Assembly: GCF_963921235.1 (NCBI RefSeq)
Contig: NC_086097.1
Coordinates: forward strand, 58,406,001 to 58,470,000
Reading direction: 5' to 3'
Length of the DNA: 64,000 bases
Source: Mobula hypostoma
Lineage: Eukaryota
Position numbers and translations under genes: made by a program. The notes under the pieces are model-generated. The model was given only the letters and a program-made list of their open reading frames with translations, was not told the origin of the DNA and searched no databases. Below are positions 18,865 to 56,354 of the stretch, in pieces (the first letter of the stretch is position 1; each line of letters opens with the position of its first letter).

Positions 18865-20160
18865 CATAGAGCAATATAGTATTGATACAGTCCCTTTGCC
18901 CAAAGTTCATGCCACCTGCATAGTTCAACTAGCTAGTCGAAATTTCCTGTGTCTAGCCTGTACCCTTCTTGGCCCCTTTCTTCCATGTACTTACCCAAAT
19001 TATGTAAAATGATAATGTTGTACCTGCCTCAACCATTTCTGGCAGCTCATTCCATGTACTCACCATTTACTGCATGAAAACATTTGCTTTTCAAAACCCT
19101 TTTAAATCTTCCTCCCCTCCAACCCCAAATCTATGCCCCCCTAGTTCTGATCTCCCCTATCATGGGGAAAGATTATTATCATCTAATCTATATCTCATAA
19201 TTTTAAACACATAGTGTCATAGTTATAAGACCCATCTGTGCTGAACTTCTCTTGTGTTCCAAAAATGATGACCTAGCCTTGCCAATATCTCCCTATAACT
19301 CAGGCCAACTAGTCCTGGCAATATCCTCAAATCTTTTCAGCACTCTTTGCAGTTTAACCACACCATTCCTACAGCAGGGTGGCAGAAACAGTACGCGGTG
19401 CTCCAAGTGCAGCCTCAGCAATGACTTACAAACTGTAACATAATGTCCCAATTCCAATACTCATTGCCCTGACTGACAAAGCTAGCATGACAAATGCTTT
19501 TCTCGCCACCCTGTCTACCTGTGACACCACTTTCAATGAACTCTGCACTTGTACTCCATTGCAATTAGACTCCTAGGTTCAGCATCTCGGCCTGAAATGC
19601 TGACTCTTAGTTCCTTCCCATAGATGCTGCGTGATCTGCTGAGTTCCTCCAACATTTTGTGTGTTACTCTGGATTTCCAGCTTCTGCAGAATCTCTATTT
19701 ACTCCAGGTGCTCCTGGTACTCCATAATGGTGTACCATTTATAATACGAATTTTGCAATGGTTTATCTTTCCAGAATGCATCACCTCATACTTGTATTGA
19801 AATCCATTTGCCACACCTTGATCCACTTCTAATCAAGATCCCCTTGTAATATGGGATAGCTTTCACTGTTGAGGACAAACCCTAATTTCATGTCATTTGC
19901 AAACATGCTGATCAAGCCTTGTGCATAAATAATGAACAAAAGGATCCCAAATCCATCCTGTGGCAAAGTACTAGTCACCAGCCTCTACTCCAAGAAACAG
20001 CCTTCACCCACCACCCTCTGCTTCCTGCCTCCAAGTCAATTTTGAATCTGTCTATTTTACTCTCCCTGGATTCCATGGGACCTAACATGCAGGACCCTGT
20101 TGAAGGCCTTGCTAAAGTCCAAACAGACAATATCAACTGCCCTATCCTTTTGGTTACCTT
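18865..20160 (-). mobile_element. Old CR1 LINE fragment with a degenerate PLE end inserted at about 19580-19700
   Basis: Antisense similarity to the CR1 RT and 3' end; the PLE segment matches 28750-28870. Confidence 0.65.
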
Positions 20161-26242: not shown

Positions 26243-27414
26243 TAATGCACCATTGCCTCTCTGTATTTTCCCTTATTTAGACTTTACCTTCTGTCCTATA
26301 TTTCACTAATTTCTCTCATTCACAGCTTCAAATGGTACCATGAAATTTCACAAGAAAGCACTCAAAATGCTGTTGAATTGTGCAATATTCAAGCAGTGAA
26401 AGACCCTGCACATGGTGTCATGAATGCTGACAACCTTGCAACTGTAGGGAGTGGGAGAAAGGATGGTGACAGCAGAAGCAGTATAATAAATGGCTAGTGG
26501 TGGAAGGAATTAAACAACAATTATACAGTTAAACAATTAATTCAGTTAAAAATTCCTGGTGATAAAATCATTGAAGGTTACATTATCATTATAATGGAAG
26601 AAAGAAGTTCATGTAATTTGATAAATTATGTTTAAAGTAGCCAAGTGCAAACAGTTGTACATTTTCAGTGTCTTGAAGATTTCTTTGCATAAATGAGGAA
26701 AAGTGGTCTCATAACTTACCATGATCTGCTAATGACATTTTATGCAGAGGCTTTTCTCTTTGTAGATGAAGCTTTCTTAAGGACTTTAAGGAACAATATA
26801 CACCATGATTACAGAATAGACACAACGTGCTCTCTTTGTGTATTGCTTTTGATTTATTGGTGAACAGGTGAAGATCACAGGAATGACATACTGGTTTGGA
26901 GGTTCATTGATCATTGTAATTTGGGTAGGGCAGGGTTAAATAGGTGGATGGCAAGCAGGAAGGACCTGTATCTCTAAATAAGTTAATCAACTAAACTTAT
27001 TGCTAGCACGTTACAGTACTATGGTCTTACTTTTATGAGTTTATCTAAAAATAAACATTTGCTTTCATGCATACATAGAACATAGTATTTTGGATTTATT
27101 GCATGTGCTGATGATTAGCAACTATTATTACTGTTTTTTTAAACTGGGTGGCCCTTGTAGATTGAGGAAAGTGAAAAGTGATATTTGAATATGAGGATGG
27201 CTTTAAGGAATGTACCAGCCTGATATCTTTAAGTATGGACTTGTAATTCAGATCTGAGAAGAAATGCCAACTTTTGAACTTGGAATGTTAGGGAACACCA
27301 GACTTGGGTGATCCCTACAATGGAGATGGTTGAGATGAGCTGAGTACTTAAAGTGGGTATGATTTCATAATTTTTCAAAGTGGTAGGGTATGTTGAGCAT
27401 AGGTTAGTAATGTG

Positions 27415-27568
27415 CAACACACATAAAAGTTGCTGGTGAACGCAGCAGGCCAGGCAGCATCTCTAGGAAGAGGTGCAGTCGATGTTTCAGGCCGAGACCC
27501 TTCATCAGGGACTGACTTTTATGTGTGTTGCTTGAATTTCCAGCATCTGCAGAATTCCTGTTGTTTGC
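27415..27568. mobile_element. Short Penelope-like end with an internal inversion and a decayed hammerhead (minus, 27477-27513)
   Basis: TSD GGTTAGTAATGTG at 27402-27414 and 27569-27581. Confidence 0.8.
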
Positions 27569-27798: not shown

Positions 27799-28873
27799 CA
27801 CACAAAATGCTGGTGAAACGCAGCAGGCCAGGCAGCATCTATAGGAAGAAGTACAGTCGATGTTTCGGGCCAAGATCCTTTGTCAGGACTAACTGAAGGA
27901 AGAGGATAGTAAGAGATTTGAGAGGGGGAGGGGGAGATCCGAAATGATAGGAGAGGACAGGAGGGAGAGGGATGAAGCTAAGAGCTGGAAAGTTGATTGG
28001 CAAAAGGGATACAAGGCTGGAGAAGGGAGAGGATCATGGGACAGGAGGCCCAGGGAGAAGGAAAAGGGGGAGGGGGGGAACCCAAGGATAGGCAAGGGGT
28101 ATAGTCAGAGGGACAGAGGGAGAAAAAGGAGAGAGAGAGAGATAAAGAATGTGTGTATATAAATAAATAACAGATGGGGTACGAGGGGGAGGTGGGGCAT
28201 TAGCGGAAGTTAGAGAAGTCAGTGTTCATGCCATCAGGTTGGAGGCTACCCAGACAGAATATAAGGTGTTGTTCCTCCAACCTGAGTGCTGCTTCATCTT
28301 GACAGTAGAGGAGGCCATGGATAGACATAAGATGAAACCACACTCAGGTTGGAGGAACAACACCTTATATTCCATCTGGGTAGCCTCCAACCTGATGGCA
28401 TGAACATTGACTTCTCTGACTTCCATTAATGCTCCTCCTCCCCTTCTTACCCCATCCCTTATTTATTTATTATTTTTTCCTTTTTTTTTCTCTCTCTCTC
28501 TGTCCTCACAGTAACTCCTTTCCTCCTCTCCATTTTCCTCTCGTGCTCACCTCCCCCTTTCTTTCTCCCCAGGCCTCTGTCCCATGGTCCTCTCCCTTCT
28601 TCAGCCTTGTATCCTTTTTGCCAATCAACTTTCCAGCTCTTAGCTTCATCCACCCCCACCCCCCCATTCTTCTATCATTTCGGATCTCCCCCTCCCCCTC
28701 TCACTTTCTAATCTCTTACTATCTCTTCTTTCAGTTAGTCCTGATGAAGGATCTTGGCCCGAAACGTCGACTGTACTTCTTCCTATAGATGCTGCCTGGC
28801 CTGCTGCGTTCCACCAGCATTTTGTGTGTATTGCTTGAATTTGCAGCATCTGCAGATTTCCTCGTGTTTGGGG
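27799..28873. mobile_element. Penelope-like element made of two inverted 3' ends (GIY-YIG C-terminus, pyrimidine tract, hammerhead)
   Basis: TSD AGGAGATATT at 27789-27798 and 28874-28883; arms of about 530 bp meet near 28329; LEEQHL.F.LGSLQPDGMN appears on both strands. Confidence 0.85.
28736..28773 (+). ncRNA. Minimal hammerhead ribozyme motif (PLE type)
   Basis: AGTC-CTGATGA-AGGATCTTGGCCC-GAAA-CGTC^GACT; core intact, one mismatch in stem II. Confidence 0.7.
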
Positions 28874-39643: not shown

Positions 39644-40248
39644 CTACGCTCTGTCCGCCAGAGAAAGCAGGATCTCCTAGTGGCCACACATTTTAATTCC
39701 ACGTCCCATTCCCATTCTGATATGTCTATCCATGGCCTCCTCTACTGTAAAGATGAAGCCACACTCATGTTGGAGGAACAACACCTTGTATTCCATCTGG
39801 GTAGCCTCCAACCTGATGGCATGAACATTGACTTCTCAAACTTCCGCTAATGCCCCACCTCCCCCTCGTACCCCATCCATTATTTATTTATATACACACA
39901 TTCTTTTTTTCTCTCTCCTTTTTCTCCCTCTGTCCCTCTTACTATACCCCTTGCCCATCCTCTGGGTTTTTTCCCCCTCCCCCTTTTCTTTCTCCCTAGG
40001 CCTCCTGTCCTATGATCCTCTCATATCCCTTTTGCCAATCACCTGTCCAGCTCTTGGCTCCATCCCTCCCCCTCCTGTCTTCTCCTATCATTTTGGATCT
40101 CCCCCTCCCTCTCCCACTTTCAAATCTCTTACTAGCTGTTCTTTCAGTTAGTCCTGACGAAGGGTCTCGGCCCGAATTGCCGACTGTACCTCTTCCTAGA
40201 GATGCTGCCTGGCCTGATGCATTCACCAGCAACTTTTATGTGTGTTGC
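39644..40248 (+). mobile_element. 5'-truncated Penelope-like element 3' end
   Basis: TSD TTGCTTGCCTTTA (39631-43 and 40249-61); GIY-YIG C-terminal part VATHFNSTSHSHSDM...LEEQHLVFHLGSLQPDGMNIDF; hammerhead at ~40150-40186 with a broken GAAA (GAATTGCC). Confidence 0.85.
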
Positions 40249-41360
40249 TTGCTTGCCTTTATTTTTTTTACAATATAGACATCATAGCTTGAGGGAGAAG
40301 TGAATTCTAAAAGCTGGTCTTCCTGCAGTTTGCATTTATTAGTATATTATTTCAGCTACTGAAGAAACTGCAGTTTTTATTTCTAAATGGTGGAAGTTAA
40401 CTGATTCTGAATTGCCAACCCATCAGATGCTGTAGTGTTTTCATAAATAACCCAGCTTTTACAGTTGAAATGGAGTAACAGCAGCGAAAATCCATGAATC
40501 ATGAGTAGTAGTCAGTGCGATCTAGAGAATATGTAGTGGGTAATCAATAAATTGTTTAGATGATTGTCATTCTGATGGAATCTCCCTTGAGTTCATTTAA
40601 ACATTTATTGCCAACATCAATTGCCATTAATGTGGGCAAAGCGTACAGGGTGGCCAAAGCAATAGGTTGGAAAGATTAAGGGAAGAGGAACAATTTAACA
40701 TATTTTTAAACATCTCAAGTTTGCCCATGTGAAATGCATTAGTTCCTGTAGAGTGGCACATCTTTTTTTCTTAGCTGGATGTTTTGTTTTGTATTTCATT
40801 CTAGGTGGGTGTATGGGGTACTGGTGATGCACATTAGGTGATATGCTACTGTGATAACTTCTGTGGAAAGATTATCTGATAATGCCCTAATGTCAGGAAC
40901 ATTGTGCTTTAACAAGTTAAAGTGTGCGATGGTTTATGCTGTAAAGTTCCTACATGCAATAAATTTAATAGAGGTGGGAAAAAAGGTTTTGCTTTTATAA
41001 TTGTCCCTCTAATTTAGTCAGGTATACCCTCTGTTGATTGCCATTCTTGCCTTTTTGAAAGGCTGTTCAATGTTTTCTTTGTCAGTCTCCAGGTAAAGCT
41101 TATCAGTTATTTTTCATGAGCATTTTCCCTCCTGAATGAGGAGGTGCTTTAAGTCAGCTCGAGTTAAGTGTCATTGAATGCCATTAAGTGTCCATTTTCT
41201 CATTTAGATATGGTTTATTGATGGAGTACTATTGGATTTATTTGAATCTGAATACATATTTATCTATTTTTGATAAAGGAAGCATTTTTACCAAAGATTC
41301 ACAGGTTTCTACTTCAGTGAGTTTCATTATACACAATGTTTCATGAAATTTCTTTCACAG

Positions 41361-50762: not shown

Positions 50763-51439
50763 GCTACATTATTTTGATTGGGTGCATTTAAGAGACTTTT
50801 GTGTATATAGAGGCACTGCTGAGTAATTAATAGCAGATCCTCACTGGTGAAGGAAACAGTGAATAACGCATTTGTAGCAGAAATTATTTGTTGTATTTAT
50901 GGGAAGAGTGAAGAAAGTTGCAGTGAAATCAGCCAACTTTTGACTGCTCCAGCAAAGAGAAAGCACTGAGACAATGGGCTAAACGCTGCTCTTCGTTCTA
51001 GCCTTTTTTTTCCTAATTTTGCTCACTTTGAATTTCAAGCAAATTATTTTCTTCTATTTTGAAGCTGCTTATGTGTATCACCTGTCAGCATTATACTGAC
51101 GTGTTAATATGGTTTGTTAAATTGATACTGATTTGCATGTCACAGCTTTTGCATTATAATGTGAAGCATTACAGATTGATCGCCTATGATGCTTGAACCC
51201 TTTCAGCTGCAGGGACCTGTGTTAAAACTCCAACTAAATCTTACTCCAGCAATCTCAGTGGAGTATTGACAGTTCAGTCTTTTCTCTAAGATCATTGCAT
51301 TTTGACATACTGCAAGCAGATTATTTTAAGGTTACTTGATAATTTTGATATTATTGTCATTATCAAGTTCCATATGAATCTGACATTTAGCCAAAATATT
51401 TTTCCTTGTTATGGTGAAAGGGTTAATTTTTGCAGACAG

Positions 51440-51615
51440 CATTCTTGCTTGATGCTGGTATGTCTCCAATCACTTCTAATTTTTAAAATTTACTTATGCA
51501 ATTGTGCTGTGTCTATTTCGTTTGCCTCTTTGCAACAATTTCTGTACTGCAATTTTTTCATTGCCATTAACTGATGCTACCTGTTGTCCTCCTTATGCCT
51601 TGGCCTGCACTTCAG
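51440..51615 (+). promoter_or_regulatory. Splicing-regulatory region upstream of the microexon (long AG-free zone, UGC-rich)
   Basis: No AG from 51440 to 51613; 11 TGC triplets; candidate branch points ttctaat (~51474) and ttaactgat (~51567). Confidence 0.6.
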
Positions 51616-51645
51616 GATTTCTGTCTGAGCAATCATTCTAAGCAG
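51616..51645 (+). CDS. DAAM1: DAAM1 30-nt microexon in the FH2 linker: DFCLSNHSKQ (probably alternatively spliced)
   Basis: ttcag|GAT...CAG|gtaagc, phase 0/0; aligns to recalled human DFFVNSNSKQ between ...YQRQQ and KE... Confidence 0.9.
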
Positions 51646-52628
51646 GTAAGCATGTGCTTTTAATAAAGTGCAAGCAGTCTGTTTGTATAAATTGCAGCAT
51701 GTTTGCAAAGATAAAAATGCATATTAAACTTAGTTTAGGTGATGAGCACTTAAACAGTTTTGTGTACAAACTTGTATCACATCAACATTATCGCATTTTT
51801 AAGAAAATGTGACTAATTGTATTGTTCTGAAGTTTGATTTTATAAGTAATTTGGGTATTACCACAATGCAGACAATAATTCAGATTAATTCTACTTTGTA
51901 ATAAAGCTATGAAGGGGCAATAAAGCCTTTTAATTAGACACGAGTTTGTAACATGAAATATAAAAGATGCACGATGGTCCAAAACGAAACTCGCAAGCAT
52001 TAGAAATACAAAACCAAACTGATTTTGGTGTGAATAAGTGAGAGGCAAAAAGTAAGATTTAAGAATGTGAAATGTAGTTCATGATCAGTTTTGTACAGCA
52101 CAAATTATGGTTAAAGAAGTAAAGCATTGACATTTTTGAATGATGTATATATTACAATGGGATGGATTGGCTTGTGTGAAAAGGCTAGTTTTAACCGTAG
52201 ACTTATTCCTACTTCCTGTAATTGAAAAGGAATTTTAAAATGAAAAAACTTATGTACGTTGTGCCAATCATGTGCATTAAAGATCTATGTGTGGATTTTA
52301 TTACATTACGCTTTACACCGTTTTCTTTATTTTGAGATTAAACTGAGGCTTAGGAGGGTTGTTTTACTTAAGTAAGAATACTTCGGTCTGTGGGTTCACC
52401 TTTATCATTGGAAGATTAAATTCACCTTTAGAATTATACGTAGAAAGGACATGTACCTTCAGAGTTTCGTAAGTCAATCCAAATATTAAGAAATAGTTAA
52501 CTGTATTTTGTCCTCATTCATTTAGAGATTGGGGTTCAGGTGCTAAATTAAGTAGAATTTTATTAGGTTATTGAGTATTTTCATTATAGCTTCAGGTTAT
52601 CTAATGTGCCCTTTTTTTTGGACTATAG

Positions 52629-52735
52629 AAAGAGACAGATTCTAATGAAGACACATTAAATTCTACCAAGAAAGTCAAAGAATTGTCTGTAATAGATGGG
52701 AGAAGAGCACAGAATTGCAATATTCTTCTATCCAG
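52629..52735 (+). CDS. DAAM1: DAAM1 coding exon (FH2): [35 protein letters not shown](R)
   Basis: ctatag|...AG|gtaatg, 107 nt; last exon found in the window. Confidence 0.96.
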
Positions 52736-53305
52736 GTAATGGTTTTATCATTTATTACAAGAAAGCTTGAAAATCCTGCACTTTATTTTATGATTTGTGC
52801 ATTTAAATGTTTGTAATGATTGTAATCTGTTCTTTACGTTCATTAGGTAATTGGTTCATTAGGTTCACTGCAGTAGATACAAAAACAACAGTGGTGTCAT
52901 AGGCAGAGCCATTGCCTACAGTGGTTAGTAATACATGTCCTGACCAATATTTGGAGCTGCTTGTATTAACAGGAGTGGCAGCATCTGGAGTTGCCTTTCA
53001 AGTTGATACAAAAGAGTTGATTTTCTCCTCATTTAGTTGGAAGGATTTAAGTTACCAAACACAGCAGGATCTGTACATTCCACATTTTTTCCTCTCCACA
53101 ATCTCATTGCCATTTATTGCTTTTTGGATCTGCTAGCTTGCAGAGAGGAAATCAATTGTTTGTGATCCTGCAGCTGATTGCTTTCAACAAGATTGTATCT
53201 TTTATGGAAACAACAGGAATTCTGCAGATGCTGGAAATTCAAGCAACACACATCAAAGTTGCTGGTGAACGCAGCAGGCCAAGCAGCATCTATAGGAAGA
53301 GGCGC

Positions 53306-53341
53306 AGTCGACGTTTCAGGCCGAGACCCTTCGTCAGGACT
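53306..53341 (-). ncRNA. Minimal hammerhead ribozyme motif (mirror copy)
   Basis: Exact reverse complement of 53356-53391. Confidence 0.75.
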
Positions 53342-53355
53342 AGACAGATTTGACT

Positions 53356-53391
53356 AGTCCTGACGAAGGGTCTCGGCCTGAAACGTCGACT
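53356..53391 (+). ncRNA. Minimal hammerhead ribozyme motif
   Basis: AGTC-CTGACGA-AGGGTCTCGGCCT-GAAA-CGTC^GACT; all core nucleotides present; predicted cut after 53387. Confidence 0.75.
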
Positions 53392-53949
53392 GCGCCTCTT
53401 CCTATAGATGCTGCTTGGCCTGCTGCGTTCACCAGCAACTTTGATCTTTTATGGACTTGTTTTGTCTTCATTGTTGGCTCTTTTTGTGTAACATGCAATG
53501 TGCTGGCAAGTGTATGCTTGTTTAACTTGCACGTTCAGCATATTCTTTATGATGATGATGAAATGTTGAGCATGTGGGTGTACAAATTGTAAAAGCTGGG
53601 GAAAAATTAATGGTTTCAATTGTGTGCTCTGATTTGGAAGGCATATTTTAAAATGATTTTTTAGTGTTTTGGGGCTTACAGTTCAAGTTAAGACTTTTAA
53701 ATGGTTGTGCAACTGACTGATCCTTTTGACTGATGAATAACGGTCATGAATTTGAGGATAATTTCTATTAAATGTTCCAAAATGAAGATATTGTTAAGGG
53801 TTTATCTTTGTTTAAAACGTGTGACAGTTTCTCTCTCTTCTGAGAGAACAGGGTTGAGTGTGTGCTGAAGTGCGTGTCAATCTTTTTAAGTCTGAATATG
53901 AATTATGTAGAAAAAATAGATGATAAGACAAAGATTGAATGACATAATT

Positions 53950-55175
53950 CTGCTCCTATCAAGTTGACCACACCATTTGATCATGGCTGAGTTATTTTCC
54001 ATTTTTAAAGCTATTTCTCCCAATAACCTGTAACACCCTTACTAATCAAGAACCTATCAATTTCTGCTTTAAATATGCCCAATGACTTGGTGCTACAGCC
54101 ATCTGTGGCAATAAATTCCACAGATTCACCAGCCTCTGGCTATAGAGATTCTTTCTATCCCTGTTTTAAAGGGACACTCGTGTATTCTGAGGGTTGATCT
54201 CTGGTCCTAGAGTCTCCTACTGTCGGAACCATCCTCTGCATGTCCACTCTAACTATGACTTTCAATATTTGGTAGATTTCAATGAGATCCCACCCCCTCA
54301 TTCTTATAATGAGGGAGTACATGCCTAGAGCCATCACACACTCCTCCTACATTAATCCTTACAGTCCTGGAATCATTCTCATAAGCGAGTTCTAGACCCT
54401 CCCCCATGCTCACACATCCTTTCTTAGATATGGAGCCTAAAGCTGCTCACAATGCTCTAAACGTGGTCTTACCAATGTCTTATGAGGCCTCAGCATTACA
54501 TCCTTGCCTTCATACTCTGATATGAATGCTAACATTGCACTTGCCGTACTTACTACTGACTCAACCTGCAAATTAACCTTTAGGAATCCTGCAGTATGGC
54601 ACCCTAGTCTCTTTGCTCAGATGATTTCTAAATTTGTTACAACTTTATTACTTTTACCAAGTGCATGACCTTACACTTCCCTATACTGTATTCCCTCTGC
54701 CACTTCTTTGTCCATTTTCCTACTCTGCCTAAGTCCTTCTGCAGACTCCCTGCTTCTTCAGCACTACCTGTCTCTCCACCTATCTCTGCATCATCTGCAA
54801 ACATGGCCACAAAGACATTAATTCCATCATGTAGAACGTTAACATATAATGTGGGTCGTAACAGATACAACACAGACCTCTGTGGAACACCACTGGTTAC
54901 CAGCAGCCAACCAGAAGAGGCTTCCTTTATTCACACTCTTTGCTTCTGCAGCCAGCCAATCTTCGATCCATGCTAGTATCTTTCCTGTATTACCATGGGC
55001 TCCTGTCTTGTTTAGCAGCCTCACGCATGGCACTTTGTGAAAGGCCTTCTGAAAATCCAAGTAAACAACATTCACGGACTCTCCTTTGTCCATCCTGTTT
55101 GTTATTTCCTCAAAGAATTCCAGCAGATTTGTCAGGCAAGATTTGCCCTTAAGCAAACTGTGCTAAATCTGGCCT
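53950..55175 (-). mobile_element. Degenerate CR1 LINE (RT to 3' end)
   Basis: KGKSCLTNLLEFFEE, YLDFQKAF and MFADD motifs in broken frames. Confidence 0.85.
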
Positions 55176-55699: not shown

Positions 55700-55808
55700 C
55701 TCATCTCCCGCTGGTTCAGCCCCAGATGAAGAGAGTCCAGCTCGTCTCGCACTGGTTCAGCCCGAGGTGAAGAGAGTCCAGCTCATCTCGCGCTGGTTCA
55801 GCCCCAGG
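55700..55808. repeat. 41-bp tandem repeat, about 2.7 copies
   Basis: Units start at 55700, 55741 and 55782 (ctcatctcgcgctggttcagccccaggtgaagagagtccag-like). Confidence 0.9.
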
Positions 55809-55891
55809 TCTCAGCCCGAAACGTCGACTGTACCTCTTCCTATGGATGCTGCCTGGCCTGCTGCGTTCACCAGCATTTTTTGTGTGTGTTG
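55806..55891 (+). mobile_element. Penelope-like terminal fragment (3' half of the hammerhead)
   Basis: ggtctcagcccGAAACGTCgactg...accagcattttt; lacks CTGANGA. Confidence 0.75.
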
Positions 55892-56354
55892 TTTACAAGG
55901 ATGTTGCCTGGATTGGGAAGCATGACTTATGAGAATAGGTTGAGTGAACTCGGCCTTTTCTCCTTGGAGTGACAGAGGATGAGAGGTGACCTGATAGAGG
56001 TGTACAAGATAATGAGAGGCATTAATCCTGTGGATAGTCAGAGGCTTTTCCCCAGGGCTGAAATGGCTAGCGAGAGGGCATAGTTTTAAGGTGCTTGGAA
56101 GTAGGTACAGAGGAGCTGTCAGGGGTAAGTTTTTTACACAGAGATTGGTGAGTGCGTGGAATGGGCTGCTGGCAGCGGTGGTGGAGGCGGAAACGATAGG
56201 GTCTTTCAAGAGACTCCTGGATGGCTACATGGAGCTTAGAAAAATGGAGGGCTATGGGTAAAGCCTAGGTAGTTCTAAGGTAGGGACATGTTCGGCACAG
56301 CTTTGTGGGCCGAAGGGTCTGTATTGTGCTGTAGGTTTTCTATGTTTCTATGTC
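55892..56354 (+). mobile_element. CR1 LINE 3' end
   Basis: Terminal coding similarity and a (TTTCTATG)n tail. Confidence 0.82.

Follow-up and report, generated by a model that had tools for sequence, protein, structure and literature searches.

What is the perfect fold-back that lies in an intron of DAAM1, how was it made, and does it matter to its host gene? These questions arise from a window of 64,000 nucleotides, the whole stretch of DNA analysed here, in which a preliminary description had reported a perfect 92-bp palindrome. We are confident, if short of certain, that a Penelope-like element (PLE) left this structure recently as a non-coding stub with two back-to-back ends inside a 12-bp TSD, that it likely arose in one event primed from two ends, and that it likely has no function in DAAM1.

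Structure of the insert

The sequences 53252-53343 and 53354-53445 are exact reverse complements (92 of 92 positions) separated by a 10-nt loop, with no further perfect pairing beyond these arms. A 12-mer found at 53197-53208 and again at 53444-53455 is the only direct repeat of at least 8 nt flanking the insert. The arms, loop and TSD of the preliminary description are thus confirmed by sequence comparison, as are its intact CpGs: the insert has 12, with an observed/expected ratio of 0.75 as against 0.29 for the window. The RNA-folding check that it had proposed also gave a strong hairpin (-218.7 kcal/mol, z = -25.8, none of 100 shuffled sequences being equally stable). The fold-back itself was correctly delimited; what had been overlooked is an unpaired 43-nt element tail at 53209-53251. 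From left to right, the complete insert begins with one TSD copy and the 43-nt tail, continues with a minus-strand pLTR end, the 12-nt filler and a plus-strand pLTR end that lacks the tail, and closes with the second TSD copy (Table 1). The filler (53343-53354) is not element sequence, so one of the 92 arm pairs is filler; no template for it was found in the element, and the best match within the 300 nt of flank searched, 8 of 12 positions, is taken as chance.

Table 1. Positions of the insert, its parts and its neighbours in the window
Feature	Position	Strand	Basis or remark
DAAM1 microexon, 30 nt, AG..GT-bounded	51616..51645	+	
DAAM1 FH2 exon	52629..52735	+	PDB 2Z6E/2J1D, E 8e-12
Left TSD copy, 12 bp, 75% A+T	53197..53208	.	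single at the empty site of organism B
PLE tail, 43 nt of the element 3' extension, on the left arm only	53209..53251	-	
Left arm: pLTR 3' end in minus-strand element orientation, truncated on its 5' side at hammerhead helix I	53252..53342	-	
Minimal type-I hammerhead motif, minus copy, core start 53337	53305..53342	-	read by eye against PMC4209133 (passages on the motif)
Junction filler, 12 nt: 10-nt loop and one chance G-C pair; no element template	53343..53354	.	
Right arm: pLTR 3' end in plus-strand element orientation, without the tail	53355..53445	+	
Minimal type-I hammerhead motif, plus copy, core start 53360	53355..53392	+	sequence
Right TSD copy; its first 2 nt are also the end of the right arm	53444..53455	.	
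Older PLE-end pieces	19585-19692, 27414-27566, 27808-28198, 28550-28869, 39852-40251, 55807-55894		

Identity of the element

Judged by its sequence, the insert is a pair of head-to-head pLTR ends of an endonuclease-bearing PLE. A search of its own genome returned many identical copies of the element end, and 53209-53342 recurs letter for letter in 19 of the 29 other loci fetched, these having been picked as best matches. Upstream of the element end, sister copies hold an ORF that encodes RT and GIY-YIG domains; in five of them (L003, L046, L047, L048 and L050) the DKG, YIDD-type and GIY-YIG motifs are present in frames located immediately 5' of identical or near-identical ends. The Pfam matches in the sister ORF stay below the curated cut-offs, both for RVT_1 (E 4e-5, 23.8 bits, cut-off 29.6) and for GIY-YIG (E 4e-4, 21.0-21.2 bits, cut-off 22.6). 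Between RT and EN the sister ORFs carry a C-x4-C-x2-C motif. The family may be of the Neptune type, a placement taken from this Cys motif, which in the relevant part of PMC8557442 marks both Neptune and Nematis.

The insert has the features of a PLE insertion, namely an inverted, 5'-truncated copy placed head-to-head, a tail on one end and a short TSD; its tail, at 43 nt, slightly exceeds the published 30-40 nt. This layout is already known as the published inverted-pLTR unit. The units described in passages of PMC3846280 (Pen2a_Av) and PMC8557442 have the same head-to-head pLTRs, a tail on one arm and a single short TSD around the whole unit, and they encode the same RT and C-terminal GIY-YIG as the longer sister copies found here. 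In contrast to these units, as they are described there, the present insert has no ORF between its arms and both arms are cut short at the hammerhead. The rotifer examples given have a tail of 31 nt and TSDs of 8-10 bp, slightly shorter than the 43 nt and 12 bp observed here. A literature search combining Penelope, chondrichthyan and hammerhead ribozyme found no report, and is too narrow to call the family undescribed.

Related sequences occur in other forms as well. L046 and L050 are kilobase-scale head-to-head PLE insertions with pieces of the ORF on one or both arms, i.e. a long form. Another 6-7 fragments of the PLE end seen in the insert, all of them older, are found in the DAAM1 region of the window (Table 1); the one at 27414-27566 combines a minus-strand element end with a tail fragment on the plus strand. 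At 55700-55822 three tandem 41-nt units are followed without a gap by a PLE end whose first bases lie within hammerhead helix II. Over its 88 nt this end is 88% complementary to the left arm, from which it is 2.5 kb away, and it is a second possible pairing partner of that arm within the same intron.

Age and integrity of the insertion

The insertion is young. In a related species (organism B, run X5) a single 739-nt contig joins 53196 straight to 53444 with one copy of the TSD, which is the empty site; a presence/absence test in related species had been among the checks proposed. In organism D (run X14) contigs cover both flanks, and none bridges the insertion site. The A-B divergence of the flanks is 32/2,398 (1.3%), and at this value, which corresponds to the oldest possible age, 92 bp would be free of mismatches with a probability of 0.29. 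Both arms have 0 mismatches to the sister copy L002, and no private change is common to the two arms of the insert. Youth is therefore sufficient to account for the perfect arms and homogenisation is not needed; of the two alternatives originally offered, very recent or homogenised, the first is supported and the second is not.

That the inversion should stem from a chimeric read or from misassembly is, in our view, next to impossible. It would fit such an origin that no contig among those listed spans the hairpin loop and that run X1, which supplies the junction contigs, may be the source sample itself. Against it, two unbroken X1 contigs show 0 differences across the junctions: 51400-53228 runs from the left flank 20 nt into the tail, and 53421-54000 leads out of the right arm into the flank beyond it. 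They support the inverted orientation of the two element ends. Moreover, a fold-back read cannot yield a TSD, a one-sided tail and a clean empty site, and most of the look-alikes sampled have a TSD of their own (see below).

Fold-backs of the same family in the genome

The DAAM1 hairpin is a typical member of its family and nothing special. The exact 35-nt hammerhead core has 33,195 copies genome-wide, and tight head-to-head fold-backs number 522 with spacers of 4-13 and 214 with spacers of 14-17 (the DAAM1 copy included), so that at least 736 hairpins as tight as this one exist in the genome; a control pattern gave 0 matches. Among the first 100 cores listed, pairs within 3.5 kb were head-to-head in 10 cases, tail-to-tail in 1 and direct in 2.

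A sample of 30 fold-backs, including the DAAM1 copy, was compared; it consists of the first matches to exact patterns along one contig and hence leans young. In 28 of the 30 the long arm terminates at element position 128-139, and in 27 the short arm does so at position 80-105; 25 have a TSD of 11-17 bp, and 26 have the tail on one arm only. Stems are perfect in 10 cases and have at most one mismatch in 21. After 4 fold-backs with decayed or short arms had been dropped, the tailed arm was found to reach further 5' in 11 of the remaining 26, the tail-less arm in 7, with 8 ties. The DAAM1 insert is one of the ties, both arms starting at the same base, and does not discriminate between mechanisms.

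Fold centres cluster just 5' of the hammerhead: 522 were counted there, as against 13 at a control position about 37 nt before the hammerhead front (a site with 26,290 exact 20-mers) and 24 at one about 30 nt past it, where the fair enrichment is nearer 9-fold, since the downstream control 11-mer is present on both arms in only 12 of the 30 sampled fold-backs. In the spacers of L031-L066, 20 of 60 arm starts have just one templated base upstream of the anchor, often common to both arms, and some spacers repeat hammerhead sequence. Such spacer patterns suggest microhomology joining and repeated template jumps.

The hammerhead motifs

The plus copy has a helix I formed by 53355-53359 with 53388-53392, a conserved core at 53360-53366, a helix II, GAAA at 53380-53383 and a palindromic stub in the place of helix III, i.e. 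the minimal form known from PLEs, and it lacks a loop III; the predicted cut would fall after 53387. The preliminary description spoke of a ribozyme on each strand. The core is indeed present on both strands (53360 on plus, 53337 on minus), whereas the word ribozyme overstates what is a minimal motif without helix III. Rfam found no hammerhead anywhere in the window at the gathering threshold, and at E values up to 10 on 351 nt it again found no hammerhead and returned two chance matches.

For a transcript of the plus strand, the fold predicts that all bases of 53355-53394 pair with the other arm (probability at least 0.997), in agreement with the proposal that a transcript of either strand would form a 92-bp duplex hiding its own hammerhead. 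Folded in isolation, a 41-mer of the motif is predicted to have a mispaired core. The stable helix III and free core of an active monomeric hammerhead are thus missing from the predicted fold, and since the motif is buried in the stem and has no loop III, it is unlikely that it would cut as a monomer. For minimal hammerheads in metazoan PLE pLTRs the cited part of PMC4209133 reports no cleavage by single motifs, low cleavage by dimers, and a need for a same-strand dimer. The anole PLE hammerhead, according to passages of PMC11167929, cuts only with protein and is dispensable for insertion.

In comparison with the motifs described in PMC4209133, those of the insert have the same 5-bp helix I, an intact core, an extra base before helix II and palindromic positions for helix III. 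Two differences can be named from the same passages. Opposite-strand pairs lie about 100-700 bp apart there, while here they are 16 nt apart and fully complementary, and the G10.1-C11.1 pair is highly conserved there, while position 11.1 is U here. The most recently active PLE lineage may accordingly be one with a weakened ribozyme. As a separate observation, U at 11.1 (53379 and its mirror position) marks a young subfamily; it is carried by the 33,195 exact cores, and the older copies in the window have C. A non-LTR retrozyme was considered and rejected, because it needs direct tandem hammerheads on one strand and the motifs here are on opposite strands; the direct tandem arrangement is that of the retrozymes in the part of a preprint (10.64898/2026.07.22.740005) used for comparison.

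Mechanism of insertion

Read along either strand, the flank passes into element sequence in antisense, the arrangement that priming of cDNA by both target 3' ends would leave. We infer from this anatomy that two-ended priming, plausibly with run-off at the 5' end, is the likely course of events. An element protein would cut the two target strands 12 nt apart. The left 3' end would prime copying of the RNA from an outer start site, tail included, and the right 3' end from an inner start site 43 nt further in. Both cDNAs would stop at the hammerhead front, probably near the RNA 5' end, and their ends would then be joined with the 12-nt filler. What we take to be an initiator-like motif is situated just before hammerhead helix I, and run-off at a 5' end of the element RNA at this place is plausible.

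In LINE-1 twin priming (5' inversion) both target ends prime and an inverted piece comes to lie inside one TSD, and these features are shared by the insert. The second LINE-1 primer lands far inside the RNA, so that the pieces do not overlap and there is no hairpin, whereas here the two starts are 43 nt apart and the same stretch was copied twice. It is also useful to compare the insert with the PLE system studied in vitro. Purified PLE protein is reported in PMC11167929 to cut and extend both strands, with two internal RNA start sites that bound the tail. The passages on this element, PAc/Poseidon of the green anole, thus describe the same two RT start sites and the same use of both strands, and we further liken its A+T-rich target and its dispensable hammerhead to the present case. 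The Cys motif between RT and EN sets the insert's family apart from PAc/Poseidon, and the main text of PMC11167929 shows no joined head-to-head product.

The same element and the same neutrality would also be compatible with a second arm made by self-priming, in which the first cDNA, or else an antisense template, folded back and was copied onto itself. Self-priming has been proposed for junction palindromes in a section of PMC3846280, it gives a direct account of the perfect arms, and 19 of the 26 usable fold-backs are compatible with it (tailed arm longer or tie), the DAAM1 copy included. In the other 7, however, the tail-less arm reaches 9-14 nt further 5', which excludes a simple fold-back from the tailed copy alone for these cases. 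In addition, the end points of the short arms fall repeatedly on a handful of positions (88-105), the pattern expected from a second RT start site, and the filler has no convincing template. We therefore regard self-priming as rather unlikely, and two-ended priming as the preferred mechanism.

It is extremely unlikely that the insert is a fold-back mini-element of a MITE-like or retrozyme-like kind that propagates itself, or that gene conversion has kept an old copy perfect. Some spacers do recur among the fold-backs, and a few older copies have perfect stems though both arms differ from the reference (e.g. L045 and L060). The recurring spacers nevertheless accompany differing short-arm ends and TSDs. 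The junction of the DAAM1 insert (53343-53354) occurs only once in the genome, so that the hairpin was made at the DAAM1 locus and did not spread as a unit, and its ends are asymmetric. Conversion is opposed by the lack of a shared private change in the arms, whose perfection is explained by youth alone. For the DAAM1 copy both variants are largely refuted. A MITE or fold-back DNA transposon in the strict sense is ruled out by the one-sided 43-nt tail together with the unique junction.

Relation to DAAM1

The reported exon about 470 nt upstream was correctly recognised: the TSD starts 461 nt past the FH2 exon. The host intron is about 26.4 kb long, the next exon lying about 15.2 kb beyond the end of the window. 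In run X9, which by guess is RNA, one contig covers exactly exon 52629-52735, as a spliced transcript would; the intron beside the insert is left uncovered in this run, which counts neither way. The 51616-51645 microexon fits the DAAM1 microexon in PMC12056172, as described in the part cited, in its position and in its length of 9-10 aa; its third residue is a cysteine, and contigs of organisms B and D cover the intron around it with few changes. The suggested link between hairpin and microexon is weak, as exon 52629-52735 separates the microexon from the intron that holds the insert. The statement that the antisense arm is transcribed first is true; it holds for both strands of any head-to-head pair and says nothing about DAAM1.

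By default, the insert is likely without function for DAAM1. In the pre-mRNA it would form a 92-bp hairpin that buries the hammerhead and would then leave with the intron. The contrary possibility, that the hairpin is edited by ADAR or cleaved by Dicer and alters how DAAM1 is spliced, also at the neural microexon, is very unlikely. It could draw on the perfect 92-bp duplex predicted for the pre-mRNA, on the spliced neighbouring exon in run X9, and on the small RNAs over inverted Penelope halves of a rotifer that are mentioned in a passage of PMC3846280. The insert is missing, though, in a close relative and hence not conserved, and it is one of hundreds of similar hairpins. Its nearest splice site is 461 nt off, in a 26-kb intron, with an exon between hairpin and microexon. 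No plus-strand donor or poly(A) motif was found in the insert, and the sole acceptor-like AG that it adds on this strand lies inside the stem. Long intronic duplexes are general ADAR substrates, and the ADAR, Dicer and cruciform ideas of the preliminary description are generic to any long inverted repeat. Incidental editing of the hairpin is plausible and would not amount to a function. The arms match tens of thousands of contigs from other element copies, so that editing or small RNAs of so abundant a repeat are not assignable to the DAAM1 locus.

Implications

Taken as a single locus, the insert is of minor importance, at most a presence/absence marker between close species. A conserved neural exon would have undergone a rare species-specific change if the insert had shifted the DAAM1 microexon; nothing here suggests so. 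The pattern of the family, with its two classes of arm ends, TSDs of 11-17 bp and centres at the hammerhead front, offers concrete predictions for the in-vitro PLE system, in which second-strand synthesis and joining are still unexplained. Tentatively, and leaning slightly against rather than for it, we consider that the stubs may be a genome-wide record of the last steps of PLE insertion: cuts of both strands by a protein dimer 12-15 nt apart, priming by each 3' end at one of two internal sites on the RNA, run-off of both copies at the transcript 5' end, where an initiator directly precedes the hammerhead, and a hairpin that silences itself. If this reading is true, hundreds of young, species-specific, long intronic duplexes would have arisen in this genome as a by-product.
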